From assembly GCA_046482545.1 (NCBI GenBank), contig JAWOEX010000021.1:103041-167040 (forward strand): a stretch of DNA of 64,000 nt, read 5' to 3'. This document shows, in pieces, positions 1,789-57,440 of the stretch. Made by a program: the position numbers and the translations under genes. The notes beneath the pieces are model-generated. The model saw only the letters and a list, made by a program, of their open reading frames with translations, was not told the DNA's origin and ran no database searches. The DNA comes from Candidatus Thorarchaeota archaeon (GTDB lineage Archaea; Asgardarchaeota; Thorarchaeia; Thorarchaeales; Thorarchaeaceae). Numbering within the stretch: the first letter of the stretch is position 1; the number at the start of each line of letters is the position of its first letter.

Positions 1789-2458
1789 GTACCATACAAT
1801 CCTCCAACCCACGTCAAATGGCGAGACTACCATTTCATGGAGCATTGAAGAAAGCCCAGATGTACCAGTTGAGTGGGGATGGAGCGGTGAAGGAGCTTGG
1901 ATGACAGAGGAGGAATCTTCAATGACCTTCCGCATCACCAACATTACTGACGTTGTCGAAGGTACTCTACACATTGGCAATCTAACCATAACCACCAATG
2001 ATACCACCATCGCGAGGGAACTCGTCATTGGAGTCTGGGGTTTGACACCTTTCTTCCCCGGGCTGGTCGTACCAATAGGCGACGAAAATATGCAAATCTT
2101 AAACGAAACAGCCAGAGCCTCTGCAGAAAGAGTATCAGGGAACTATATGAACGGGACAATGATTGTATCAGAGCAAGCGATTGAAGTAGATGACACAAGC
2201 TATGAGTGCATCACCTTCGACTATGAACAGGATTCTTCTGGATATGCCCAACCACAGATTACCCATCTTGCATACGATTGTGAAACAGGGGTCCTTGTAT
2301 GGGCAAACACTAGCTACTCGTTTGGTACACCTTACAATCTGTGTCTTTCGCTTGAAATGATAGCCCCACCATCTCCGAGCTCCATTCTTGCACTTGTGGG
2401 GATTGCAGTAATCGCTGTTGTTGCAATTATTATCATAATCAAGGTACGAGAGGGATAA
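1718..2458 (+). CDS. Cell-surface protein with N-terminal signal peptide, N-glycosylation sequons and C-terminal TM anchor
   Basis: Signal-like N-terminus. Many N-x-T/S sequons. C-terminal SPSSILALVGIAVIAVVAIIIIIKVREG anchor. Confidence 0.45.
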   Translation: MINKTIIALLMITLVFTPLMSTTEYHTILQPTSNGETTISWSIEESPDVPVEWGWSGEGAWMTEEESSMTFRITNITDVVEGTLHIGNLTITTNDTTIARELVIGVWGLTPFFPGLVVPIGDENMQILNETARASAERVSGNYMNGTMIVSEQAIEVDDTSYECITFDYEQDSSGYAQPQITHLAYDCETGVLVWANTSYSFGTPYNLCLSLEMIAPPSPSSILALVGIAVIAVVAIIIIIKVREG

Positions 2459-2482
2459 TCCTGCAGTAATGAAGGGATAGAC

Positions 2483-3118
2483 ATGAATCGGGGGCATTTA
2501 GAGCAGTACCACATCCGCCGAACGCGGTACGTTCCGATTGCCTCCCTAATGACCGCGCTCGCCCTCATAGGCATGTATGCACTTGTTGGTATCCCCAATG
2601 TTGAGCTAGGAACAGTCATTCTCTTCGTCACAGCGCTAGTATTCGGACTAAAAATGGGAATAGGCAGCATGTTGATAACGGCTGCCCTCTATGGATCATT
2701 GAATCCATGGGGTGGGCTTATTCCACAGATATGGATTAGTCAAGTGTTAGGATGGCTTTTGATTGTAATAGTTGGAAGCCTTCTCGGACATTCAGGGCCC
2801 AACTTAAAGCAATCACAACGAAACGGATTAGAGTTCTTTATACTCGGTGCTTTTCTAACAATCTATTTTGATGCGGTAACAAATCTTGGATATTCGCTGT
2901 CAACAGGTATTCCCTACGCCACCGCACTTATAGTGGGACTGCCCCTTATGGTGATTCATGTACTATCAAATGCTTTCCTCTTTGGGATTGTCGTTCCCCA
3001 ACTTGAGTCAACCATAAGAAGGGAGTTTGGTAATGATATATGGGAGCCCGTTATCAAAAATGATGACACAAACAATCCGAAAACTGTGGAAGCATCTCAC
3101 TTGATAAAAGAGGGGTAG
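2483..3118 (+). CDS. Polytopic membrane protein (ECF S-component-like)
   Basis: About six hydrophobic helices. Adjacent to the DUF4430 gene. Confidence 0.4.
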   Translation: MNRGHLEQYHIRRTRYVPIASLMTALALIGMYALVGIPNVELGTVILFVTALVFGLKMGIGSMLITAALYGSLNPWGGLIPQIWISQVLGWLLIVIVGSLLGHSGPNLKQSQRNGLEFFILGAFLTIYFDAVTNLGYSLSTGIPYATALIVGLPLMVIHVLSNAFLFGIVVPQLESTIRREFGNDIWEPVIKNDDTNNPKTVEASHLIKEG

Positions 3119-3126
3119 ATGAACTC

Positions 3127-3765
3127 TTGCATTGGAAAGAACAGATTAAGAAGCTTGTACAGCCAGCGGAGGGGCGTGTGTCTCCCGCCTTCAAACCGCA
3201 CCATGTTGCTGTTGCAATTGTGATGATTGGTCGAAGACAACCCCTTGGGCGATACGAACTCTGTGACACCATGTCAATTGGTGAGGGGAGTGCCAGAACT
3301 CTGCTAAGACGCCTAGGAGAAAGGGATTACATCACAGCCGAGGGACGACAAGGGCAGAAACTGACACATACAGGTCAAGAGATATTCGAGGCAATGATCA
3401 ATGATATTCCGCGAGGGCTCTATCTGGATGTTGAAGGGCTCGCAATGTATGAAATCTCCTACGGCAATTTGGTGAAACAGAAGGCGGAAGAGGTCACGGA
3501 TGGTATAAGACAACGTGATGAAGCAATAATCCAAGGAGGCTATGGTGAAGCAGGAGCAACAACATTGGTCTGCAAGGAGGGACTGCTGCTCATGCCGCCG
3601 AATAATTTCAACCCTCTCCTCAAATACGAAGACGAGACACTACTAATTATGGATAGTTTGCGACCCAAGGATGGGGATGTAGTAGTAATTGGATCAGCGA
3701 ATAATAGTGGACTGGCAAGAGAAATCGCAATGGCATCTTCTATGACGCTCCTTGGTGAGGAATAG
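3127..3765 (+). CDS. Hypothetical wHTH-containing protein
   Basis: ORF translation. The N-terminal segment LGRYELCDTMSIGEGSARTLLRRLGERDYI looks like a winged helix. Confidence 0.4.
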   Translation: MHWKEQIKKLVQPAEGRVSPAFKPHHVAVAIVMIGRRQPLGRYELCDTMSIGEGSARTLLRRLGERDYITAEGRQGQKLTHTGQEIFEAMINDIPRGLYLDVEGLAMYEISYGNLVKQKAEEVTDGIRQRDEAIIQGGYGEAGATTLVCKEGLLLMPPNNFNPLLKYEDETLLIMDSLRPKDGDVVVIGSANNSGLAREIAMASSMTLLGEE

Positions 3766-4636: not shown

Positions 4637-5725
4637 ATGGGCGACGATGTACGTATAGCCATAGCTGGACTGGGAAATTGTGCCTCTGCACTCATACAGG
4701 GTGTGCATTACTACAAAGATGCAAAAGCAGATGAAGAGGTTCCGGGCCTAATGCATGTTGACTTTGGGGGATATTTTCCGAAACACCTCAAGTTTGTGGC
4801 GGCTTTCGAAGCAAATGAGCGGAAGATAGGCAAAGATATCTCTGAAGCAATTTGGGAAGACCCAAATTGTTGTGAGAATTTTGTACCTGATTTACCCAAA
4901 ACAGGTGTCGAGGTATTACCTGGCCCAATTTCGGATGGTGTTGCAGACCACATGATGGATTCATTCTATGCCTATGATGATGATATTGAGCCCGTTGATG
5001 TGGCTGAAGAGCTCAAAGAAGCAGAAGCCGATATGTTGATTAACTATCTACCTGTGGGAAGCGCTGAAGGGGCACGGATATATGCAAAGGCGGCTCTCGA
5101 AGCCGGTGTTGCATTTGTCAATGCTATCCCCGAGTTTATTGTTTCCGACCCGAATGACCCAATAACCACGCAGTTCAGGGAGAAAGGCATACCATGTGCT
5201 GGTGATGATATCAAAAGCCAGCTAGGTGCTACCATTCTGCACAGAGTCTTGGCACAGCTGTTTGACAAGCGTGGTCTGATTGTTAATAATACATATCAGC
5301 TGAATATTGGAGGTAATACTGACTTCGAAAATATGCAGGTTGAGGATCGGCTGAGCAGCAAGCGAGTCAGTAAGACAGAAGCGGTCACAAGCTGCGTCAA
5401 GTATCATCTACCGACCAAAATCGGTCCGAGTGACTATGTCCCATTCCTTGACGATAATAAGATATGCTACATCTCCATGCGAGCCAATTCGTTCGGAGAC
5501 CTTCCAGTAGATGTGGATCTCAAGCTTTCAGTTCAGGACTCACCAAACAGTGCTGGAGTCATCATTGATGTGGCCAGAGCAATAAAGATAGCACTTGACC
5601 GGGGTGTAGGTGGCGAACTCTCAAGCATCAGTTCATACTCGTTCAAACACCCAAGATATCAAATTGATGACTTTGAGGCACGAAAGAGAGTAGATGAATT
5701 CATAGCTGGAGAAAGAGAGCGCTAG
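4637..5725 (+). CDS. myo-inositol-1-phosphate synthase (archaeal-type)
   Basis: 362 aa. N-terminal Rossmann segment RIAIAGLGNCASALIQGV. Overall match to archaeal MIPS-family signatures. Confidence 0.75.
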   Translation: MGDDVRIAIAGLGNCASALIQGVHYYKDAKADEEVPGLMHVDFGGYFPKHLKFVAAFEANERKIGKDISEAIWEDPNCCENFVPDLPKTGVEVLPGPISDGVADHMMDSFYAYDDDIEPVDVAEELKEAEADMLINYLPVGSAEGARIYAKAALEAGVAFVNAIPEFIVSDPNDPITTQFREKGIPCAGDDIKSQLGATILHRVLAQLFDKRGLIVNNTYQLNIGGNTDFENMQVEDRLSSKRVSKTEAVTSCVKYHLPTKIGPSDYVPFLDDNKICYISMRANSFGDLPVDVDLKLSVQDSPNSAGVIIDVARAIKIALDRGVGGELSSISSYSFKHPRYQIDDFEARKRVDEFIAGERER

Positions 5726-5758
5726 GTGTACAGAACAGTACCCTAGCCTTTCCCCCAT

Positions 5759-6883
5759 CTATATTTCCGTGAAGCTTTTCGCTTTATCTTCATCAAGTCG
5801 TTGGATAACCTCGACTAATAACCTCACAGCGTTTTCCACATCATCGAAATCAAGCATTCCATGATGAGAATGAATATGTCTTGTGGGTATACCTATGAAC
5901 AATGAGGGGGCACCCATGCCGGTTATATGGATAATACCAGCATCTGTACCACCACTCTTCAAGAACGCCGGCTGATGCTTCACGCCAATTTCCTCAGCGA
6001 TATCTAAAACGAATCTTCTAAATCTAGGGTTCGGTATCATTGAACCGTCGCCAGCAGAAATCGAGACGCCATTGCCCATCTTCTGGACGAGATCTTTTGC
6101 ACCGGGAACATCACCGGATATGTCAACGTCGAGGGCGAAACCTAAATCAGGTTTGACCATTTGTGCAGCCGTCCTAGCTCCTCGAAGACCCACTTCTTCC
6201 TGTGCGGTGGATACAGCATAAATGGTATTGGGATGATTCAGGTTATTGGTGCTAAGACGACGTAACACTTCTAACACAATGAAAACACCAATTCTATCGT
6301 CGAAGGCTTTTGCCACCCCGACGATGGTTTCATGAGTAGTTTCTTCCTCATTATCATCGTCTTCCTCTTTCCGAATCCGATCCATTGTTCGGAATTGTGC
6401 GTGGGGTACAGCTGGGTCGCCAACTTGGATACCTAACCCCTCTACTTCCTCCTTGGAACTGCAGCCAATATCGATATACATGTCTTTCATTTTAACTGGT
6501 TTCTTCCTTGTTTCATCATCCAGCACATGTGGAGGTGGGGCCCCAATCACCCCGATTATTTTGTCGTCCCCATTAGATGGTTTGATAACAACCTCATGAG
6601 TTAGCAATGTCTGATCCCACCAGCCTCCTAAGCTGTGGAATTTCAAGAAACCATCTTTTTTTATCTCAGTAACAACGAAGCCTATTTCATCGATATGCCC
6701 TGCAAGCATGATTTTTGGTCCAGAATCTCCGCGTTTGAAAATGACAGAGCCCATCCTATCATACAACACTTCGTCTGCAAATTCCTCTCCATAATCTCGT
6801 GCAAGCCTCTGAGCCTCATGTTCAAAACCACTAGGGCCAAAGGCATTGCATAGACGCTCCAAAAAATCGATATCTAAGTCCAT
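5759..6883 (-). CDS. M42 family (TET/FrvX) aminopeptidase
   Basis: Motifs MLAGHIDEIGFVVTEI and HSHHGMLDFDD. Typical M42 peptidase length. Confidence 0.75.
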   Translation of the reverse strand: MDLDIDFLERLCNAFGPSGFEHEAQRLARDYGEEFADEVLYDRMGSVIFKRGDSGPKIMLAGHIDEIGFVVTEIKKDGFLKFHSLGGWWDQTLLTHEVVIKPSNGDDKIIGVIGAPPPHVLDDETRKKPVKMKDMYIDIGCSSKEEVEGLGIQVGDPAVPHAQFRTMDRIRKEEDDDNEEETTHETIVGVAKAFDDRIGVFIVLEVLRRLSTNNLNHPNTIYAVSTAQEEVGLRGARTAAQMVKPDLGFALDVDISGDVPGAKDLVQKMGNGVSISAGDGSMIPNPRFRRFVLDIAEEIGVKHQPAFLKSGGTDAGIIHITGMGAPSLFIGIPTRHIHSHHGMLDFDDVENAVRLLVEVIQRLDEDKAKSFTEI

Positions 6884-7019
6884 TATTACACTTCATCCTT
6901 CTTGTGCTATCACGCAGGAATTCACTATAATTATGCTTATCGGCAGGACCAATCAAAGAATATAGAATAATATCATCTAGTCATGATTTTCGGCATATAA
7001 GAAGCAAGAATGGGTAGGT

Positions 7020-7586
7020 TTACAGTACCACGTTTTTTGCAAGCATCTCAAAAGCTTCTTCCACGTTCTGACCTGTTAGGGCACTGGTTTCCAGATACCC
7101 CGCTAAATCCTTCTTGATAACATATTCACGAGCTACTTCGGAACTGATAGTCCGTTGATCGTCCAAATCAACTTTGTTGGCCAGTACAATGATTGGAATG
7201 GACTCGTCTAGGGCTTTCTCGGTTTCTGCAATCCAATTGTCAAGAACATTGAATGTTGATTTCCGGGTGGTGTCGAAGACCAGCAAGGCTCCCTTTGCCC
7301 CGCGATAGTAGCTGTTTCGGATGAAGTCAAATCGCTTTTGTCCTGCCAAATCCCATATGAGAAGCTTAACTCGCTTCTCATTGCCACTTGAATCGTTTAC
7401 CGGTACTATCTTCACGGCGAATTGGCTTCCAATGGTTACTATGTATTGTTCAGTAAAGCGGTTGGTTAGAAATCGGTTGACTAGAGCGGTCTTTCCGCTA
7501 CCTCCAGCTCCTATCATGACCACTTTTCGTACAACGTGGAAATCTTGAGATGGTGAATTTGACACCGAATAATCCATTTCAATCAT
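7020..7586 (-). CDS. Small GTPase of Ras superfamily (Rab-like)
   Basis: P-loop GAGGSGKT. G3 motif WDLAGQKRF. Rab-type YYRGAKGALLVFD. G4 motif NKVD. G5 motif ETSALTG. Confidence 0.75.
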   Translation of the reverse strand: MIEMDYSVSNSPSQDFHVVRKVVMIGAGGSGKTALVNRFLTNRFTEQYIVTIGSQFAVKIVPVNDSSGNEKRVKLLIWDLAGQKRFDFIRNSYYRGAKGALLVFDTTRKSTFNVLDNWIAETEKALDESIPIIVLANKVDLDDQRTISSEVAREYVIKKDLAGYLETSALTGQNVEEAFEMLAKNVVL

Positions 7587-7796
7587 CCCATAGCCTTCGT
7601 CTTAGACAATTCATGTTGGTACAAGGGAAGCGTTTAGGCCTTATTTCTATATGATACATATAGCCTTTTTCGGGTCAGACAATCACTGCGCATTGAGACA
7701 TCTAGACAATCAGGATTGGCGCGTTATTTTCTCCATTACACTACGAACCAGAAGATATTATATCGCTACGAAGAGCTAGAATTTTACGCCGGGAGG

Positions 7797-48700: not shown

Positions 48701-48785
48701 TGCGAGTAGTAATGACTGTGACTCCAAATAAACGAGCTGACTGTCCCTAACCGTTGCTGCGAAGCTCACGTACAAAGCCCCTGCT

Positions 48786-48880
48786 GACCTGAGGACCTTC
48801 GGGTACCTTGGGGGCAGCGACGCTGGCAGGGGAAGGGTGGAGCACAGAAGTTTCCTCAGTTGGGTTCACTCAACTGTAAG
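48786..48880 (+). repeat. Short conserved element, copy 1 (second copy at 56853-56925)
   Basis: About 80% identity over roughly 75 nt: GGTACCTTGRGGGC...ACGCTGG..AGGGG.AGGGTGGA.CACAGAAGTTTC. Confidence 0.5.
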
Positions 48881-49078
48881 AAATGGGTTATCAGGAAGGT
48901 GTAGAAGACAAACTAGCACTACTTGAAGAACGCATCATAGAAAATCCAAAAACCATCAGATGGCGGGTTAGAGCTTTTTTAGGACGCAAGTTGCCTGTCA
49001 GGAAGGTTGTTGAAGAAGAGAATCTGAAAGTAGGTTAGAATCTTCTCTATTGCCTACCGCCATTGTTCACGTGTTGAT

Positions 49079-49582
49079 TCATTCTTTCCAGTAGTATTCA
49101 AAATCGCAGCAATCCTCGCCTTGCATAAGCGTTTTTGACCGTCTCAATCTAACATCTGGATGGATTGCAGGGGTTGCTGGAAAGTCCTGTTTACAGTGAA
49201 GGAGATAGCCAATTTCGGTTGCGTCAAGTTTCTCAAATACTCTGGCATGGACACACTGAGTGACCATGCAGAGTGATTTGGTTTCGTCTTCTTCTGTTAT
49301 AGTGACCTCTTCGATGTTGTTCTTGTTCAGGTCGTTGACCCATTGATGCAACAGTAGCTTGACGTCTTCAAAGTTTTGAATGGGCTCATCTAGTTCTTCA
49401 ACAATACTCCTAACATCTTCAACTGCTTGGCGTTCGGCCCAATCAGAAACCATTTGGTGAGCTCTCTGTTCACCAAGACTCTTTTCCAAGGCGCGTACGA
49501 GTGATACAAGTTGTGAGGCAATGGCTTCAAAGTGCTCTTCAACAGTGATATCCATCTGATGCTCAAACTTCGAATTGGACAA
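49079..49582 (-). CDS. Hypothetical Cys-rich protein (paralog of 61240..61752)
   Basis: The C-terminal Cys pattern C-x3-C ... C ... CC-x-FE is shared with the paralog. Confidence 0.45.
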   Translation of the reverse strand: MSNSKFEHQMDITVEEHFEAIASQLVSLVRALEKSLGEQRAHQMVSDWAERQAVEDVRSIVEELDEPIQNFEDVKLLLHQWVNDLNKNNIEEVTITEEDETKSLCMVTQCVHARVFEKLDATEIGYLLHCKQDFPATPAIHPDVRLRRSKTLMQGEDCCDFEYYWKE

Positions 49583-49656
49583 GTTTCGTTCCTCATCTTA
49601 GAATTGAAAGCCAACTACATATCTTTATCTGAAAATTACAAGGAACTGCGACCTGC

Positions 49657-49917
49657 CTCATACCGGGAATCTACTGTTTGATTAACAGCAGATCTTCCAC
49701 AGTGTTTGCCACGGCGTGGCCATGATGACCCACCTCAGCCTTGTCACCGTAGCTGAGAAGATCAATCTAGACATGGTGAACAGCCGTGGGTTCTCCTGAA
49801 CTCGATGGAGTACCTTGTTTGAAGAGTGAGGGTTTCTGCTTAGAAGACTGGTCTTCCCTTAGGCTTTCGGCCGCGTGCGTCGTGTAAGAGCACTAGCCCA
49901 TTTGCCTAGTCGTGCTG
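49657..49917 (+). repeat. Long conserved element, copy 1 (second copy 56530-56795, minus)
   Basis: About 75-80% identity over roughly 260 nt, with indels. Contains a micro-ORF. Confidence 0.5.
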
Positions 49918-50024
49918 ATATCCGGTACTGTTGTCAGTCTAATGAACACATCTTTGGCCACGAGAAGGGCTTAATCAAATCTTGCAGAAATCCTATATTT
50001 TACTGCACTGATGTATTAATATTT

Positions 50025-51170
50025 TTAAGATTTACAAAGCTCTTGAATCATCTCATCCAAAAGACCAAGGCCTTCCTTCAAATGCTCTTTCTCGCCGCCA
50101 AAGCCGATACGTAGATGTTTGTCAAAGCCAAAATGCTCACCAGGTACAAGCAGCAGGCCTTTCTCCTTTCGTAGCCTCTCCACCAGCTCAAGTGAACTCA
50201 ACGGGAGATTATGCTTTGGAAAACACATACTTGAAGCCTGAGGAGGAACATAATCAAATACACCGCGACGTTCATCAAGCCAATTTTTCAACATTCCCCA
50301 GTTTTGACGCACGATTTCAGTAGCGCGATCTCGTAGCCATTCTCTCTTATTGGGTTGTAAGGCCACAGTTGCCAGCGCATCGCTGATTTTGGTTGGACAG
50401 ATTGTGATGTAATCCGAGTACGCCCACAATTCTTCAGCATGCTTCTTGTCTGTCGTTGCTATCCAGCCCAAACGCAGACCAGGGAGGCCATATGTCTTGG
50501 ACAGACTGTTGGTGACAACAACCTTGTCATATTGATCGAATATGGTTGGTGTCAACTCGCCATCCATCTCAGCGCCCTGATAAATCTCATCTGACAGAAT
50601 CCATACATCAGCATCCTCAGCAATATCAACGACTGGTTTCAATTGTTCAGAATCAAAAGTTGTGCCTGTTGGATTGTTTGGATTACAAATTGCTATAGCT
50701 ATGGTTTCTGAGCTGATGGCTTCCTTGAGCATCTCTACATCAAGATTCCATCCGCCACCCTCCATCTTGAGGTTCCATGGAATGATGCTACCACCTAGCG
50801 TTCGAACTACTCCATGAATCTGCATGTAGTTGGGCTGCATCAATATAATCTCATGCCCATTATCAGATTCATTCACAAAGTTCCACATGGAAATGAAATT
50901 AGCTTCCGCTCCACCGTTTGTGACCAAAATGTTTTCTGCATCAGCTCCTTTGTACATCGATGCTATAGTCTCTCTGAGTGGAATGGTGCCATTAGTCTGT
51001 GAATAACCCAGCTTCATGTTGAAGATTGTCTCGCGTTCTCGTTGGTCTGGAACAAGTTCCGCGATACTTAGTGGTTCAACACCACTTTCCGTAAGGACAA
51101 TATCAACAATATGTTCCCATTCACTTTGAATTCTCTCAAGTTCAAAAGGCTCTAACTTCACATGCTTCAC
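50025..51170 (-). CDS. Class I/II PLP-dependent aminotransferase (aspartate aminotransferase-like)
   Basis: 381 aa. Motifs NPNNPTG and SLSKTYGLPGLRLGW. Confidence 0.8.
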   Translation of the reverse strand: MKHVKLEPFELERIQSEWEHIVDIVLTESGVEPLSIAELVPDQRERETIFNMKLGYSQTNGTIPLRETIASMYKGADAENILVTNGGAEANFISMWNFVNESDNGHEIILMQPNYMQIHGVVRTLGGSIIPWNLKMEGGGWNLDVEMLKEAISSETIAIAICNPNNPTGTTFDSEQLKPVVDIAEDADVWILSDEIYQGAEMDGELTPTIFDQYDKVVVTNSLSKTYGLPGLRLGWIATTDKKHAEELWAYSDYITICPTKISDALATVALQPNKREWLRDRATEIVRQNWGMLKNWLDERRGVFDYVPPQASSMCFPKHNLPLSSLELVERLRKEKGLLLVPGEHFGFDKHLRIGFGGEKEHLKEGLGLLDEMIQELCKS

Positions 51171-51279
51171 CTACTGGTTATTCCAAATACCTCGGTCCGG
51201 TATTAACCTCTTGCAAGGGGGAAGAAGGAACACAGAATTCTTAGGGAGGTTGAGTTCACTCACCTGTAAGATAGGTGAT

Positions 51280-51382
51280 ATGGGGCCGAGAGCGGGAATT
51301 GAACCCGCGGCTAGGGAGCCACAATCCCCAAGGTTGCCAGAGGGCCTGCCCAATGTCATCAGGCAGTCTACCCCATCTCGGC
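51280..51382 (-). tRNA. tRNA-His (GUG) with about 25-nt intron in the D-loop
   Basis: The reverse complement is GGCCGAGA...GGGGATTGTGGCTCCCT...GCGGGTTCAATTCCCGC-TCTCGGC-C-CCA. Encoded G-1 plus discriminator C73. Anticodon loop TTGTGGC. A 35-nt stretch lies between D-stem halves GGGT/ACCT, with an internal hairpin CTGCC-N11-GGCAG. Confidence 0.55.
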
Positions 51383-51454
51383 CATTACTGTTTCTGAAAA
51401 ATCTGGGATGGCTTATTATCTTATTCCTTCTTGGCAGATATAACCATTCTAATC

Positions 51455-52235
51455 CAATTTAATGATCATACCATCGTGAGCAAGTTCGATATCCATGTCA
51501 GAAAACTGTTTCATTTTCTCACGCCCAGCTTCAACATCGTCAAGAAGCCACTTGCCTAAATGGGTGAATATGATGTGGTCAGTATAGGGTTTGAAGAAGG
51601 CTATAAAATCGAGGTTGCCTTTGTGACCTAAACTGCTTTGTTATCCGCAAACACTCTCCCCCTCGCTCGAATGAAACTTCCGTCGGCAATCACTAGATCC
51701 AAATCACCGAACTTATCGTGGTGCTTTTTTCAATCCAAACCATGTCCCCAGTGTACAAAAGACGATTGTCTCTTTCCAACAGATAGGCTGTAGATTCAAC
51801 TGCTTTACTGTGGATAGTCGGTATGGCTGTTACTGTATAGGAGCCGATACTTACTTCACCGGAAATAACCTGAATCTCGATGTCTTCGGACTGTTCAGGC
51901 GCACACACAGGAACATCAATGGAATCTACTTTTTAGGTTACGAAGAATGCATGGTCCGGGTGAAGATGAGTGATGAATACAACATCTGGATTACGTTCCA
52001 AGAATTCAAATTCGCCAACATCCAGAAGAATGCATCTATCAACCAGCACTCCAGAATATTTCGAATGACGGGGGGTTAGGGCTGTATTTGCCCGGGTCCC
52101 TAGAAACTCAATTTTGGTCATTTTGTTACAGGAACTAGTTTTCCTGGTAAGTGAAGGGTCTTTCGGGAGGCCCAAACATTCCCTAGAAGGTTTGTTCGCG
52201 AAACTTGACCGTAAATAAAAAGCGGTGGTAACCAT
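51455..52235 (-). pseudogene. MBL-fold metallo-hydrolase, fragmented by frameshifts/stops
   Basis: Three collinear minus-strand pieces: an N-terminal piece with VVFITHLHPDHAF, a middle piece LYTGDMVWIEKS, and a C-terminal piece HGHKGNLDFIAFFKPYTDHIIFTHL in different frames. Confidence 0.45.
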
Positions 52236-52329
52236 TGCTTTCTTTTTGAATAGCGGCTAGTCCGTATTCCACAAGCATTATACCTACTCACCCCTTCGCA
52301 AAAGTGTGGTCTTCTACGGAGAAAAGAAA

Positions 52330-53502
52330 ATGTTCGAAAAAGAAGGTCTGAACGCAAAGGAGGTGTTCGAGGAACTTAATCGGATACTTGAAGAGGACAC
52401 AGAATATGAGTCTGGAAGACCTGTTGCTTCAATGTCGTCAATTCCCTATCAGATATCCTCCGATATCATGGCTGAGCATATGGAACGGAATCTAGGCCGA
52501 AAGCACACATTTCATGGATCAGCCAAAATCGAGAAAGAAGTAATTGAAATGATCGGCGACTTAGTTCGTGTTGAGAATGCATGCGGGACAACGACATCAG
52601 GAGGCACTGAGTCGAATATCCTCGCAATGGTTGCCGCCAGAGAGATCGGAGACACTAACGAACCAGAAATCATCACTCCGGAAACAATACACTCCTCGGT
52701 AGAGAAGGCTGCATGGCTTCTAGGTGTGAAACTCGTCAAGACTCCAGTTGATTCCCAGTACAGAGCAATACCAGACGAAATTGAAAAAGCTATCAATGAT
52801 AATACGGTTGGCATATTCCTTACCGCGGGAACAACTTACGTTGGCCAGATAGATCCAATTGACCGTATTGGAAAAATAGCATCCGATGAATCTCTCCCGC
52901 TACATGTTGATGCGGCATTTGGGGGTTTTGTAATTCCATTTTTGCAGGAGTTGAATCTTGGAAACTATCCGTTTAGTTTTGAAGTTCCCGGTGTGACTAG
53001 CGTCAGCGTTGACCCTCACAAAACCGGTTTGGCACCAATCCCATCTGGTTCTCTTTTGTTCCGAAAAAAAGAACATCTCAGCGCTATAACGAGAGAAGTA
53101 CCCTATATTCCGTTCGATTGTCAAATTCCTACCTTGCTAGGTACACGGCCAGCTGCCCCTGTAATCGCAACATGGGCAATAATGAAGCATCTTGGCAGAG
53201 AAGGATACCAATCCATAGTGGAGGATTGTATGTCTGTAACACGGCTCGCACAAAAGAAGACACAGGAAAACCCACATCTACAGTGTGCCATTGAACCCAT
53301 CTTGAATATCCTCGGAATCATAAGCAATGACATAAGCATCGACAAAATCGTCACAGAAATGGAGAAACGAGGATGGATGATGGGCAATTGTCCCCTGCCC
53401 GTTAGTTTTCGGATAGTTATCGTCCCTCATGTAACTGAGGACGTAGTAAACACCTTTTTTGATGATTTGGACGAAATTGCCAGCTCTCTTGGAACACATT
53501 GA
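52330..53502 (+). CDS. mfnA: L-tyrosine/L-aspartate decarboxylase MfnA (PLP-dependent)
   Basis: SVDPHKTGLAPIPSGSLLFR lysine motif. Group II decarboxylase architecture. Start likely MFEKEG. Confidence 0.7.
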   Translation: MFEKEGLNAKEVFEELNRILEEDTEYESGRPVASMSSIPYQISSDIMAEHMERNLGRKHTFHGSAKIEKEVIEMIGDLVRVENACGTTTSGGTESNILAMVAAREIGDTNEPEIITPETIHSSVEKAAWLLGVKLVKTPVDSQYRAIPDEIEKAINDNTVGIFLTAGTTYVGQIDPIDRIGKIASDESLPLHVDAAFGGFVIPFLQELNLGNYPFSFEVPGVTSVSVDPHKTGLAPIPSGSLLFRKKEHLSAITREVPYIPFDCQIPTLLGTRPAAPVIATWAIMKHLGREGYQSIVEDCMSVTRLAQKKTQENPHLQCAIEPILNILGIISNDISIDKIVTEMEKRGWMMGNCPLPVSFRIVIVPHVTEDVVNTFFDDLDEIASSLGTH

Positions 53503-53503
53503 A

Positions 53504-53860
53504 TTACAAATCAACTTCGTGTTTCATTTCTTCAATCTCATCTTCAAGATCACGCACTCGATCAGACAGCTCAAGGATTTGGTTCAATAGAACAGAAATT
53601 ATGTAACCGTAATTAGCAGTATAGCCTTCTTCACGGCTGATAATCTTAGCCTCCTCCAAGCGCCGTGCAGCGTTTGTAATTGATTGCTTGGAAAGGTTTC
53701 GCTCCTTGAACCATTCGTTGACCTGATCGCGGACATCCATTGGAGCCAGAGGCTCTCCTTGGAGAGGGTCTAGAAGACTATAGAGAACCATCAATCCGGC
53801 GCTCATCCTTGGGTTCATTAACTTGGCAAATGCTAAATCGAGATCTGACCTCAATACCAT
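53504..53860 (-). CDS. Hypothetical HTH/coiled-coil protein
   Basis: ORF only. Confidence 0.35.
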   Translation of the reverse strand: MVLRSDLDLAFAKLMNPRMSAGLMVLYSLLDPLQGEPLAPMDVRDQVNEWFKERNLSKQSITNAARRLEEAKIISREEGYTANYGYIISVLLNQILELSDRVRDLEDEIEEMKHEVDL

Positions 53861-54063
53861 TCGCTTCCTTTAATATCTGAAATACTCATCCGAAGTAAAC
53901 GCCAGACAAGTGAAAAAGCTTCCTCAAGCTAGGAGAAATCCTGCGAGAGACAAGGATTGACAATTAGCGATACCAAAACGTTTACGCTGGGTATCATAAA
54001 CGGTGTTTCGAAACAGAAAGGTGAAAAGCCACAAGTTTTTACTCCATCAGAGAGATTCCCGTC

Positions 54064-54747
54064 ATGACCACTGAACTTGACCGCATCCATTTCGTCGCTG
54101 TAATCCATGTTGACCAAGACAGCGTAGATGATGCTCGTCAAATTGTGAAACAGGTTGAGCCAGATGTTGTGGCTGTGGAACTTGATAAACATCGATACAA
54201 TCAGTTGATGCAAGATGATGATGCCGTCCAAGAACCGCCGACCAATCAAATGAATGCAGCAGAGGGGTTCTTGAACCAGATAGCTCTTCTGGAAAGGAGC
54301 TTGGGACAACTGACGGGATCAGGCGCCGGAGAAGAGATGAAAGCAGCAATTGAAGAAGGACGAAAAATAGATGCCAAGATAGCTCTTGTTGATAGGCCCC
54401 TTGGAGAGATTATGAACTCATTATCCAAAGTACCGCTGGATGAGATTTACCGTTTTGCCAGTATGGTACCGGACCTAGATAATCTTCAATTAAAACAGGG
54501 AGATTTCGATTTGCTTAGCTTCCTGAAGGAAGAAAGCACTATTCCAGAAATGATGGAGCAGTTTCGGACGGAATTCCCCGAATTGACAGAAGTCCTGATC
54601 GACGAGAGGGATGAATACGTAGCCGAGGCGCTAGAATTCATATTGAGGGATGTCGATGGTCAGGTTGTCGTAATTCTGGGAGCAGGACACATCAAGGGAG
54701 TAAAGGAGAAACTAGCCAAGATACTAGAGACGAACGCTGCAGCGTAA
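54064..54747 (+). CDS. TraB/GumN family protein
   Basis: IHFVAVIHVDQDSVDDARQIVKQVEPDVVAVELDKHRY matches the TraB N-terminal signature. Confidence 0.6.
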   Translation: MTTELDRIHFVAVIHVDQDSVDDARQIVKQVEPDVVAVELDKHRYNQLMQDDDAVQEPPTNQMNAAEGFLNQIALLERSLGQLTGSGAGEEMKAAIEEGRKIDAKIALVDRPLGEIMNSLSKVPLDEIYRFASMVPDLDNLQLKQGDFDLLSFLKEESTIPEMMEQFRTEFPELTEVLIDERDEYVAEALEFILRDVDGQVVVILGAGHIKGVKEKLAKILETNAAA

Positions 54748-54748
54748 A

Positions 54749-55399
54749 TCACAGGTTTAGCGCCTCAATGACGTTTTGCACACCGTTGGCATTCTTTGCG
54801 CTCACCCGGAATACCGGAATGTTGGCATCGACCTCTCTGACATCCTCTACCAGTCCATCAACATCAAAGCCAATGGCATCCGCAAGGTCAATTTTGTTTA
54901 TTATAACCATGTCGGCCCGCTTGATTGTGAGGGGATGTTTCTGAATCATGTACGGACCTTCGGTGATGCTGACAACGACAATTTTCTTTTCAACACCAAG
55001 CGGATAGCCAGCAGGGCAGATGAGATTGCCTACGTTTTCGATGAAGACCACGTCATAGGTGGATAGGTCTACTTCCCTGAGAGCAACTCTGACCATTCTT
55101 GCATCAAGATGGCAGGCGGTTTCTGTGTTGATTTGGACTGTATCAATACCATGAGATGCAACCCTGTTAGCATCAATTCGTGTTGCAAGATCTCCAGCAA
55201 CCATCAAAATCCTATATTTCTCCGCAAGCTCGTCACACATTGCTTCGATAAGCTGGGTTTTTCCTGTGCCAACCGATCCCATGATGTCAAATGCTCGTAC
55301 TCCATGCTCTTTGAAGGTCTTTGTATTGATTTGAGCTGCTTCTTCGTTCGCTCCGAACAAATCTTTGCGAATGTCGATAGAAATCGTACGTTCTTTCAT
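54749..55399 (-). CDS. hypB: Hydrogenase/urease nickel-insertion GTPase HypB (UreG family)
   Basis: GSVGTGKT P-loop. CHLDA motif. ENVGNLICPA. Confidence 0.75.
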   Translation of the reverse strand: MKERTISIDIRKDLFGANEEAAQINTKTFKEHGVRAFDIMGSVGTGKTQLIEAMCDELAEKYRILMVAGDLATRIDANRVASHGIDTVQINTETACHLDARMVRVALREVDLSTYDVVFIENVGNLICPAGYPLGVEKKIVVVSITEGPYMIQKHPLTIKRADMVIINKIDLADAIGFDVDGLVEDVREVDANIPVFRVSAKNANGVQNVIEALNL

Positions 55400-55968
55400 G
55401 CTAGGCCATCTCCTGTTCCGGACAAATTGTTCTGCGTTTTAGCTTTTCTATAGATGTAATTCTCGATAATCAAGCGGATACTTTTCTCAACAAACAAAGC
55501 CAAAGAAGCCCACAGGCCAGCCTGAAAACAGTCTATAAGGGCGACAATAATCGCCGCTTCCAAGCTTTCGGTGAAAAATGCAAAAATCGTAATGCTCGGC
55601 AGGAATCCTCCGATAAGTGCGCCACCCAAAATCACCATAATCCTATAGTGAACAGAATCCCTGTCGGAGTTAACATGAATTGCCCAACCAGTCCCAACAC
55701 CAAGAAAGATGTTGCCAATCATAGGCAGAAGAAACGGTTCACCCCCAGCCATTGCACCACCAACCCCCACAATTGCACCAACTAGCATACCCCCTGCCAA
55801 ACCGCCAATGATACCACCCAACTCTGAAAACATGAAACCGGGAGTCAGTTCCAGAAGACCCGGTATAATGGGGATTCTCACAAGAAATCTAACACCTATG
55901 CCCATCGCTGCAACTATTGCCAAAGTGGTTACCAAAGGGGTATTTTGTGAAACTGAATTAGACGCCAT
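55396..55968 (-). CDS. Gly-rich polytopic membrane protein
   Basis: Hydrophobic ORF overlapping the hypB start by 4 nt. Confidence 0.45.
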   Translation of the reverse strand: MASNSVSQNTPLVTTLAIVAAMGIGVRFLVRIPIIPGLLELTPGFMFSELGGIIGGLAGGMLVGAIVGVGGAMAGGEPFLLPMIGNIFLGVGTGWAIHVNSDRDSVHYRIMVILGGALIGGFLPSITIFAFFTESLEAAIIVALIDCFQAGLWASLALFVEKSIRLIIENYIYRKAKTQNNLSGTGDGLA

Positions 55969-55974
55969 TTCGCT

Positions 55975-56427
55975 TTACTCTGAAATTTCAGGCCATTCGT
56001 TCAGCAAAAAGCTTCTGGTCTGCTCATACCAGTTATCCAGCTGCTTCAATATCTCGCGCTTCATAGCCTCTTCAGAAATCGCACGATACAGATAGTAGTA
56101 GCCGCCTCGTTCCAAGTGCTTCTCCTCACGTATTACAAGCCCCTTGTCGAGCAATTTCGTGAGCACCCTCTGAACAGTGCTTCTATCTCGTTCTATGCTC
56201 TCATCTGTGGCTAGCTCTTCGACTGTCTTCGGTCCAGTAAGCAAAGCGAAATATACATCGATTTCGCTTTTTCGTAGACCAAACGCACAACAAAGGAAAT
56301 CGGAAGGGCGCTCAAATGCTTCTGAGAAGAGTCCCTCAAGTGATTTGTTCAGAGGCATAACACGTAAATTGTACGGCGAGACAAAGATAAGGGTTGTGCA
56401 ACAACAAGCACAGCCGCACCAGCTCAT
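55975..56427 (-). CDS. TrmB/MarR-like HTH transcriptional regulator
   Basis: VYFALLTGPKTVEELATDESIERDRSTVQRVLTKLLDKGLV wHTH. Confidence 0.5.
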   Translation of the reverse strand: MSWCGCACCCTTLIFVSPYNLRVMPLNKSLEGLFSEAFERPSDFLCCAFGLRKSEIDVYFALLTGPKTVEELATDESIERDRSTVQRVLTKLLDKGLVIREEKHLERGGYYYLYRAISEEAMKREILKQLDNWYEQTRSFLLNEWPEISE

Positions 56428-56640
56428 ATAATACTGGACGGCAGAGAGAGACTTCTGTAAGACTTAACGCAAATCTTCGGACGTAAGAAGACGAGGGGAG
56501 TCTATTATATCCAGCATAATACTCTATTCTAGTAGGACTAGGCAAGTGGACTAGAGTGGTATACATGACGCACGCGACCGAAAGCTGCAAGGAAGATATG
56601 TGCTTCCAACCAGAAGTCCTTACTCTCCATAGAGAGAACT

Positions 56641-56727
56641 TCATCGAGCTCTGGAGAGTCCGCGGCTGTTCACCTTATCTAAACGGACCTTCTCAGTTAC
56701 GGTCACAAGGCTGAGATGGGTGATCAT
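56641..56727 (-). CDS. Candidate conserved micro-ORF (28 aa; second copy 49722..49799 on the plus strand)
   Basis: MITHLSLVTVTEKVRLDKVNSRGLS aligns with MMTHLSLVTVAEKINLDMVNSRGFS. Inter-copy nucleotide differences are enriched at third codon positions. Confidence 0.25.
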   Translation of the reverse strand: MITHLSLVTVTEKVRLDKVNSRGLSRAR

Positions 56728-57014
56728 GACCACACCGTGGCAAAGACTATGGAAGAACTTGCTATTGCCGGAGTGATGACCCGGGATGACGACAAGAGGA
56801 GGAAGCCTGTACCGCGGAAGGAATCCCATTCCGATGAACGCGGACAAAGGCCTTGCTAACGCAAGGGCCTACCGGTACCTTGAGGGCGGTTACGCTGGTA
56901 GGGGCAGGGTGGAACACAGAAGTTTCACGCAGCCGCAGAGACTGCAAAAAAAAAACAGGTTATAATACTGAATTTCAAAAGAAAAAGGTGCTGTTCCTTT
57001 ATTGAGGTAACATA

Positions 57015-57440
57015 ATGGACTTTCGCAGTGTCGTGAATCCGGACAATAAGAAAGAGGAATACGAAACGATTCCACAGAGAGAGAACCGAAAGTGTATAAA
57101 CTTGGCACCACTCAAGGGTATGCTTGAATCTGATCCTGTGCGCTCGAAAGTCCTGAAATTGCTCATCGAAGATGGGGGATGGGTCAGCACAACTGATTTG
57201 TTGAAGGCAGCAAGAAAGACAAGACCTCTGATTGGTGCAGTAACGATTGGAACTATCCTCAATAGCATCAATGAACTCGTTGCATCAAGGCTGGTGCTAA
57301 GCCGCACGTCACTCGCTTCAGGAATTGAATGGGCCGAATGGAGAATGAATCCAGATTGGCTTGGACCCACTCGCAAACTTGTGCAGATGCTAAGCAGACG
57401 TCAGCGGCGAATTGACCAGCAACCAGCCAACCGTAGGTAG
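57015..57440 (+). CDS. Hypothetical protein
   Basis: ORF only. Confidence 0.35.
   Translation: MDFRSVVNPDNKKEEYETIPQRENRKCINLAPLKGMLESDPVRSKVLKLLIEDGGWVSTTDLLKAARKTRPLIGAVTIGTILNSINELVASRLVLSRTSLASGIEWAEWRMNPDWLGPTRKLVQMLSRRQRRIDQQPANRR

Follow-up and report, generated by a model that had tools for sequence, protein, structure and literature searches.

Probable relics of a TnpB-only insertion sequence family with a covarying, omega-RNA-like scaffold in a Thorarchaeota contig

TnpB nucleases, the ancestors of Cas12 and of the eukaryotic Fanzors, use an omega RNA as guide scaffold, and take the guide from the DNA that directly follows the right end of the transposon. A tnpA gene in cis is optional, and the majority of tnpB elements are found without it. 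Omega RNAs overlap the 3' end of tnpB, and the archaeal ones were first described as sense-overlapping transcripts (PMC12558985). Protein-less bacterial derivatives of IS200/IS605 elements, termed PATEs, often encode omega RNAs which would depend on TnpB supplied in trans by other elements (bioRxiv 10.1101/2023.03.14.532601). Furthermore, "rearranged" TnpB clades are known in which the RuvC-II glutamate is changed to glycine and RuvC-III reads NADxN, and which are probably active; the motif GGTTCACTCA occurs downstream of Asgard aCas1-linked tnpB genes, after a hypervariable stretch (both PMC10691335). Here, we analyzed a repeated element in 64,000 nt of DNA from a Candidatus Thorarchaeota archaeon (GenBank assembly GCA_046482545.1, contig JAWOEX010000021.1, positions 103,041 to 167,040), called the window in the following. 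Three copies were distinguished, named A, B and C. We consider it probable (about 85%) that they derive, as relics, from a single family of TnpB-only insertion sequences of the IS200/IS605-IS1341 kind in Thorarchaeota, equipped with an omega-RNA-like scaffold. The conserved module would represent the 3' end of the transposon, composed of the last ~100 tnpB codons plus ~140 nt of non-coding right end, and its sense stretch of ~430-480 nt would fold into a multi-helix RNA reaching exactly to the right terminus. Copy B would be a complete solo, i.e. an insert without tnpB, which entered with an 8-9 bp target duplication. Copy A, an older or else damaged insertion, would have parted an aminotransferase gene from its ATC-hydrolase partner and retained no more than its left end and the initial 60% of the scaffold; copy C would be a right-end stub left behind by a deletion that also took most of the neighbouring gene.

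The starting point was a first-pass annotation, made from the letters of the window, that had described a conserved element at 56530-56847 in two inverted copies. The repeat itself proved to be real. Using blastn, 56500-56860 aligned to 49690-49911 in inverted orientation with 78% identity over 224 nt (E 2e-46), and nhmmer lengthened the match of copy A to 49658-49942 (E 8.6e-40). With copy B as query both programs found two copies in the window, as had been reported, and a profile of the whole family added a third, partial relic to this count. The boundaries had been drawn too narrow, with family homology of copy B extending from 56437 to 56963. A duplicate produced by the assembly was ruled out: the copies differ by 22% and were found again in the independent assemblies L001, L002, L008, L009 and L011 (L numbers are our handles for the sequences compared). 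Neither repeat region contains a long open reading frame (ORF), again in agreement with the earlier description, and Pfam searches with the small ORFs of the window gave no matches. Rfam, tRNAs aside, yielded no match at the gathering score for the whole window and none at E-values up to 10 for 49400-57100; the sole non-tRNA signal was a sub-threshold chance match on the strand opposite to the tRNA-His gene.

Homologues were searched with DNA patterns and nhmmer. The strict patterns CTCAGCCTTGTNACCGTANCTGAG and TTTCGGYCGCGYGCRTCRTGTA gave 0 matches each in genome contigs, so that no copies were obtained from the GTDB representative genomes; CTCAGCCTTGTNACCGTANCTGAG gave 0 matches in metagenome contigs as well. 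The looser pattern GGTGAAYAGCCGYGGNYTCTCC matched 18 metagenome contigs, 15 of which hold clear homologues. Together, pattern scan and nhmmer identified about 20 homologues in related Thorarchaeota DNA with E-values from 1e-33 down to 1e-144, and several contigs carry 2-4 family copies each. In L031 the copy forms the end of a 495-aa ORF that matches the Pfam domain Cas12f1-like_TNB. Extended to its true start, TnpB comprises 558 aa in L017, L024 and L034 (tnpB at 6058-7734, +; 1905-3581, -; and 5599-7275, +, respectively). At seven loci, tblastn showed a full-length tnpB whose 3' end is formed by the module; at the remaining loci and in the window only the last ~70-115 TnpB residues were found, encoded on the strand opposite to that of the first-pass annotation. 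PF07282 (Cas12f1-like_TNB) scored 43.8-47.4 bits in L024, L017 and L031 (cut-off 26.3), and PF01385 stayed below its cut-off in the family TnpB (24.7 vs 30.5). Using phmmer against solved structures, the protein matched TnpB 9nzp (E 2.6e-8) and ISDra2 TnpB 8bf8 (E 0.005), and ~100 residues of its tail extend past the part that aligns to them. The family TnpB carries the RuvC-I motif GxDxG and the RuvC-III motif NAD(R/K)N. For RuvC-II, the HMMER alignment places an arginine at the catalytic glutamate of 9nzp, and a register set by eye (AIGRL) places a glycine there; in either register no acidic residue occupies the canonical glutamate position.

Y1, serine recombinase, Cas1 and DDE domains were not found beside the seven full-length copies, whose neighbours are housekeeping genes. 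The absence of a neighbouring transposase or cas1 gene indicates a tnpB-only element. Some of the tnpB genes are damaged. An in-frame TAA near codon 69 interrupts the otherwise full-length tnpB of L031 (~5985-5991) and L020, and both copies are therefore probably pseudogenes. In L025 tnpB is internally deleted, with aa 23-84 fused to 366-495.

Read in tnpB-sense orientation, the shared module starts with GGACTAGG ~300 nt before the tnpB stop, crosses this stop (conserved CGATGA) and continues for 135-150 nt of non-coding right end. The most conserved stretch, GGTGACA..CTGGCAGGGGAAGGGTGGAACACAGGAGTTTC, is located in the non-coding part past the stop. The terminus reads ...TGTAAGAAATGGGTTAT (...GGTTAT), beyond which the flanks are unrelated, i.e. 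the right end is sharp. The structure of the corresponding RNA was analyzed with RNAalifold on an alignment of 15 sequences. Among 98 predicted pairs 33 showed compensatory changes, and 94.9% of the cells were paired compared to 39-45% with the partners slid by 1-3 columns. None of 500 shuffles matched the observed values for pairing, compensatory counts or covariation score. Whole stems are exchanged between family members, such as AGAGTG/CACTCT, GGAACT/AGTTCC, GGGCC/GGCCC and CTCAG/CTGAG versus CTTGA/TCAAG. This strong covariation bore out the structured RNA which the first-pass annotation had listed among its options. Folding of single sequences was uninformative, with four z-scores of +1.20, -0.25, -0.34 and -2.93, of which only that for the sense strand of copy A stood out.

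The strand of the RNA was deduced from wobble pairs. In the sense-strand structure (124 pairs in the 15-copy alignment) 222 G·U stood against 67 A·C combinations, and on the opposite strand, which had been preferred before, 86 G·U against 100 A·C. Some of the G·U pairs are invariant across the family. The alifold energies agreed (-202.9 for sense, -165.1 for antisense). By these counts and energies the RNA is assigned to the tnpB-sense strand, which is the plus strand of the window for copy B and the minus strand for copy A. An assignment to the other strand from one or two stems read by eye was overturned by the full G·U count. Variability was 0.20-0.33 bits in paired and 0.58-0.74 bits in unpaired columns. 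By codon position in the tnpB frame it was 0.485, 0.464 and 0.531 (13 members with intact tails), and the third position of the formerly proposed frame, which corresponds to sense position 1, was no more variable than the others. Variability hence follows pairing and hardly codon position, indicating RNA structure as the main constraint. Since the family RNA agrees with a TnpB omega RNA (reRNA) in location, strand and structure and in ending sharply at the terminus of the transposon, we interpret it as a putative omega RNA.

Insertion was directly visible by comparison of syntenic neighbourhoods in L004-L007 and L012-L016, with a HypB 93% identical to that of the window. The HypB of the window itself has an identical counterpart in a Thorarchaeota metagenome-assembled genome, and the window shows overlap with assembly GCA_051748335.1. 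Site B is empty in L005, L006 and L007, where the intergenic spacer measures 122 nt versus ~660 nt in the window. Site A is empty in the same three loci, with a gap between the aminotransferase and ATC-hydrolase genes of 3-10 nt versus ~440 nt in the window. In the close strains L008, L009 and L011 (HypB 99% identical) copy B is present; copy A is absent also from L009, where the gap measures 87 nt. Since the same sites are empty in close relatives, both copies are lineage-specific: A and B inserted in this lineage. Empty sites in relatives and membership in a TnpB transposon family also vindicated the "degenerate small mobile element", another option of the first-pass annotation.

At site B the insert is flanked by a target-site duplication, AATACTG, with the left copy at 56430..56436 (+) and the right copy at 56964..56970 (+); the latter forms the first bases of the would-be guide segment after the right end. 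The empty site of the relatives holds the single copy TATAATACTGGCTTTC. In the L008 orthologue the duplication comprises 9 nt (AATACTGGA), and in the window 10 nt when the terminal TAT of the right end is counted. Exact flanking repeats were found elsewhere as a 9-mer in L031 and an 8-mer in L022, both abutting the right end; the 9-mer of L031 lies ~109 nt upstream of the tnpB start and again just past the right end near 7614. No flanking duplication was detectable in L024, L034, L035, L036 and L037. As exact repeats accompany only 3 of ~11 testable insertions, we do not claim target duplication as a general property of the family. Terminal inverted repeats were not seen by eye, with the left boundary being only approximate. 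Certain direct motifs recur at both ends (TGTAAGA; GCAGAGA..GAC in copy B), and hairpins are present in each end.

Copy B occupies 56437..56963 (+) as a whole, tnpB-less solo insert composed of left-end segment, scaffold and right end, as defined by family alignments. It is located between two divergent genes, directly upstream of the TrmB-ECF-HypB operon. The left-end segment of 98 nt (56437..56534, +) contains a hairpin which covaries within the family (CTTCG...CGAGG in copy B, CTCGCA...TGCGGG in L008, GCTCAT...ATGAGC in L022) and a TATA-like box, TCTATTATATCC, at 56501-56512 (+). This box, ~25-30 nt upstream of the scaffold start, may serve as promoter of the solos. The omega-RNA-like scaffold extends from GGACTAGG to the terminus ...CAGGTTAT (56535..56963, +) and matched the family profile in nhmmer at model positions 1-438 (E 2.5e-110). 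Within it, a relic of the TnpB C-terminal tail was detected by tblastn at 56569..56772 (+), corresponding to aa 405-474 of the L031 TnpB with 53% identity (E 5e-13). The tail ORF has been lost, with three in-frame stops and no ATG. Downstream of the tnpB stop position, GGTTACGCTGGTAGGGGCAGGGTGGAACACAGAAGTTTC at 56888..56926 (+) is the non-coding block with the highest conservation in the right end. A total of 88 of the 98 consensus pairs can form in copy B.

Copy A (49663..49912, -) is degraded and 3'-truncated; of the scaffold, 60% is retained at the 5' side (alignment columns 1 to ~285), and the right end is missing. It matched model positions 2-233 of the family profile (nhmmer, E 1.9e-50) and, on the sense strand, aa 417-470 of TnpB (tblastn). 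Of its 62 retained pairs 42 can form. A left-end-like segment at 49913..50003 (-), whose outer boundary is approximate, shows weak similarity to the left end of copy B, visible in the matches GATTTCTGCAAGATTT versus GACTTCTGTAAGACTT and TTCATTAGA versus TCTATTATA. Insertion A altered the C-terminus of the aminotransferase (50025-50045, -), which reads ...QELCKS* instead of ...QEIRG*, and parted its gene from the ATC-hydrolase gene, which it abuts in relatives. Copy C is a right-end-only relic at ~48774..48891 (+; start given as 48762 by the family profile search). It covers model positions 303-439 (nhmmer, E 6.7e-20) and ends with ...TGTAAGAAATGGGTTAT. Immediately next to it follow the final 46 codons (48892-49029, +) of a gene for a 253-aa protein which is intact in relatives, indicating that an insertion and a subsequent deletion destroyed this gene. 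We also tested whether an inversion had separated A and C from a single original element, but the ATC-hydrolase gene is not oriented as this would require. For copy C, an independent insertion into the 253-aa gene with a later deletion is the better explanation.

Solos without tnpB were also found in L018, L022, L026-L028, L032 and L035-L037. Their layout comprises a TATA-like box, ~25 nt, ATG-NNN-GGACTAGG, scaffold and right end, and all metagenomic solos hold the tail frame open over 101-107 codons. A profile search with the TnpB tail yielded 782 protein clusters, a count which is biased because a protein database can hold intact ORFs only. Among the best 120 of the 782, almost all were stand-alone ORFs of 98-135 aa, a few reached 184 aa and four carried the TNB domain; the few with a source name were mostly Thorarchaeota hypothetical proteins, besides zinc-ribbon proteins. 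Copy B shows the features of a non-autonomous derivative, namely no nuclease gene, both ends, multiple copies and presence/absence polymorphism. This combination is missing in copies A and C, both of which are truncated.

Several explanations compete with that of TnpB-only insertion sequence relics. The first-pass annotation had offered, among its options, a structured or dual-function small RNA (sRNA) on the opposite strand that encodes a peptide of 25-28 aa and is possibly tied to nickel metabolism. Its micro-ORFs are located antisense to the scaffold at 56641..56727 (-; MITHLSLVTV...) in copy B and at 49722..49799 (+; MMTHLSLVTV...) in copy A. Both peptides had been quoted exactly, and ATG-initiated ORFs for similar peptides are present in the two window copies and in the L008 orthologue of copy B. 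Both copies are, in addition, located a few kb or less from the nikR-cbiMNQO and hypB genes, and their similarity continues well beyond the micro-ORF stop, as had been noted. The 13 nucleotide differences across 25 shared codons were counted correctly too; however, with 5, 2 and 6 of them at codon positions 1, 2 and 3 the supposed synonymous bias was not significant (6 of 13 at third positions, one-sided binomial p=0.24). Of 15 aligned family members, 13 have ATT, ATC or TTT in place of the ATG, and in-frame stops occur in several. Family members elsewhere adjoin unrelated genes, among them those for ribosomal protein S3Ae, ABC transporters, GAPDH, an MFS transporter and adenosine deaminase, which removes the nickel link. 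Moreover, the antisense string MVNSRGLS arises by reverse complementation from the sequence that encodes the conserved sense string SGESAAVH(H). We judge the micro-ORF to be a mirror image of scaffold sequence and not a gene. With the RNA on the other strand in addition, the peptide-encoding sRNA is largely refuted, and we give it hardly any credence. A His-rich sense peptide (MGDHDHTV in one form, VGHHGHAV in another) was considered as a nickel-binding leader and rejected; it represents the TnpB tail in decayed form, with MGDNDPAV as its counterpart in intact copies. Equally remote appears an antisense regulatory RNA directed against the tnpB 3' end that controls expression of TnpB or of the omega RNA. 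Watson-Crick helices are strand-symmetric, and a few stems, e.g. CUUGAG/CUCGGG in L027, read well with G·U on that strand when inspected by eye, but over 98-124 pairs the sense strand holds more than three times as many G·U as A·C combinations, the antisense strand holds fewer G·U than A·C, and several G·U pairs are invariant. Somewhat less improbable, yet still very doubtful, are pure pseudogene fragments of the tnpB C-terminal tail with no function at the RNA level anywhere in the family. The tblastn matches to the TnpB tail fit such fragments, as do the stops and frameshifts in the tail frame of copy B. Also in their favour, the tail frame is open to the conserved stop in all full-length and metagenomic solo copies, and hundreds of stand-alone ORFs of ~103 aa are annotated in Thorarchaeota. 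Against this stand the conservation over ~140 nt past the tnpB stop, including the most conserved block, the 33 compensatory and the invariant G·U pairs, and a variability that lacks codon periodicity and depends strongly on pairing.

A further question concerns the present state of copy B. It might be a live stand-alone guide-RNA gene, domesticated or parasitic, that is driven by its own TATA box and used in trans by a TnpB from another locus of the genome, either for homing and retention of solos or for regulation of the TrmB-ECF-HypB promoter. The well-spaced TATA-like box, formation of 90% of the consensus pairs and the intact right terminus with adjoining flank are in favour of it, as are the same solo architecture in many genomes and the description of PATE-encoded omega RNAs with presumed use in trans. 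Copy B and its L008 orthologue share 95.5% identity over the 5' scaffold, a value on a par with third codon positions in flanking genes (94.5-98%) and above that of the neighbouring intergenic DNA (87-89%). However, the middle and 3' parts of the scaffold (56800-56963 versus L008 2471-2640) reach only 70-81% identity next to flanking genes at 98%, which suggests exchange or gene conversion with other copies, or decay. Copy B and L008 form 84-90% of the pairs, below the 94-100% of the other family copies with the exception of the outlier L017 (83.7%), and no tnpB is present in the window. We regard a live gene as unlikely, though clearly less so than the three explanations above. Copy B might be usable in trans by an intact TnpB elsewhere, but in this genome we consider a relic in decay more likely than a functional guide-RNA gene. 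We were aware of the fact that some observations do not fit readily to the relics of a TnpB-only insertion sequence family with an omega-RNA-like scaffold. Searches of the 64-kb window with full-length queries (tblastn and nhmmer) found no intact family tnpB, and the fragments they returned, 56507-56934, 49661-49913 and 48760-48891, cover tail and scaffold only. Comparison with the empty sites proves an 8-9 bp target duplication at site B. To our knowledge, canonical IS200/IS605 and IS607 insertion makes no target duplication, so that site B departs from the canonical IS200/IS605 behaviour. At ~430-480 nt, the scaffold is longer than any TnpB omega RNA known to us. Rfam, including RF02656 and RF02657, gave no match at E-values up to 1 for four loci with intact copies. 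Finally, copy B shows no clear purifying selection compared to its L008 orthologue.

Two further observations were made in the same part of the window. For the tRNA-His gene (51281-51382, -) Rfam aligned 99 nt with an early insertion of 33 nt, and ARAGORN called 80 nt; the insertion may be an archaeal tRNA intron or an extension. At ~51933-52235 (-) only an ORF of 100 aa remains where the relatives L004-L007 have a 226-aa gene of the Lactamase_B fold, and it may be a pseudogene of this lineage.

For the window, these results remove a false lead, as there is no nickel-linked micro-peptide sRNA, and replace it by three relics of one insertion sequence which reshaped two operon junctions and truncated a gene. 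The Asgard scaffold of omega-RNA type is absent from Rfam and rich in covariation, and could serve as the seed of a new RNA family model. It could also help to annotate the hundreds of ~103-aa "hypothetical proteins" of Thorarchaeota as solos of TnpB tail and omega RNA. An Asgard lineage with long scaffold, a seemingly rearranged RuvC-II, abundant solos and target duplication could furthermore interest the field of RNA-guided nucleases. As a tentative extension, which we consider possible but by no means probable, the family may form a distinct TnpB-only lineage whose omega module of ~450 nt was freed hundreds of times as promoter-bearing mini-genes that keep an ORF and insert with an 8-9 bp duplication, with copy B as one solo that landed in a promoter region. 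In this case, the solos would be RNA-plus-peptide parasites or helpers of TnpB, and the 8-9 bp duplication would point to a mover other than Y1 TnpA, such as a Cas1-type enzyme of Asgard archaea or a DDE enzyme supplied in trans.

Compared with the described systems, the Asgard aCas1-linked TnpB shares with the family the motif GGTTCACTCA, which is found in some right ends (window 48850-48870; L018, L030). Here, however, the motif lies inside a conserved hairpin before the terminus, and no cas1 or transposase gene is located beside the seven full-length copies. A link to Asgard Cas1 is thus a guess, as no cas1 was found near the copies examined. The clades with rearranged RuvC-II (PMC10691335) are resembled by the AIGRL strand, as read by eye, and by NAD(R/K)N. 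PATEs and the solos have in common that ends and scaffold are kept without tnpB, that many copies occur per lineage, and that TnpB and transposase would be needed in trans. They differ in that the metagenomic solos keep a TATA-like box, an ATG and a TnpB-tail ORF of 101-107 codons; the window copies have lost this ORF, and site B shows a target duplication. Compared to TnpB omega RNAs and the sotRNAs of RF02656 and RF02657, the family RNA is unlike in its length of ~430-480 nt with ~21 helices, in having no Rfam match, in the ~300 nt of scaffold that overlap the ORF and in its Thorarchaeota host. Nevertheless, it agrees with the omega RNA (reRNA) of ISDra2 and with the archaeal sotRNAs in the central points: a structured sense RNA extends from the tnpB 3' end to the right end, and homology stops sharply there, followed by a variable flank at the place where the guide would be.

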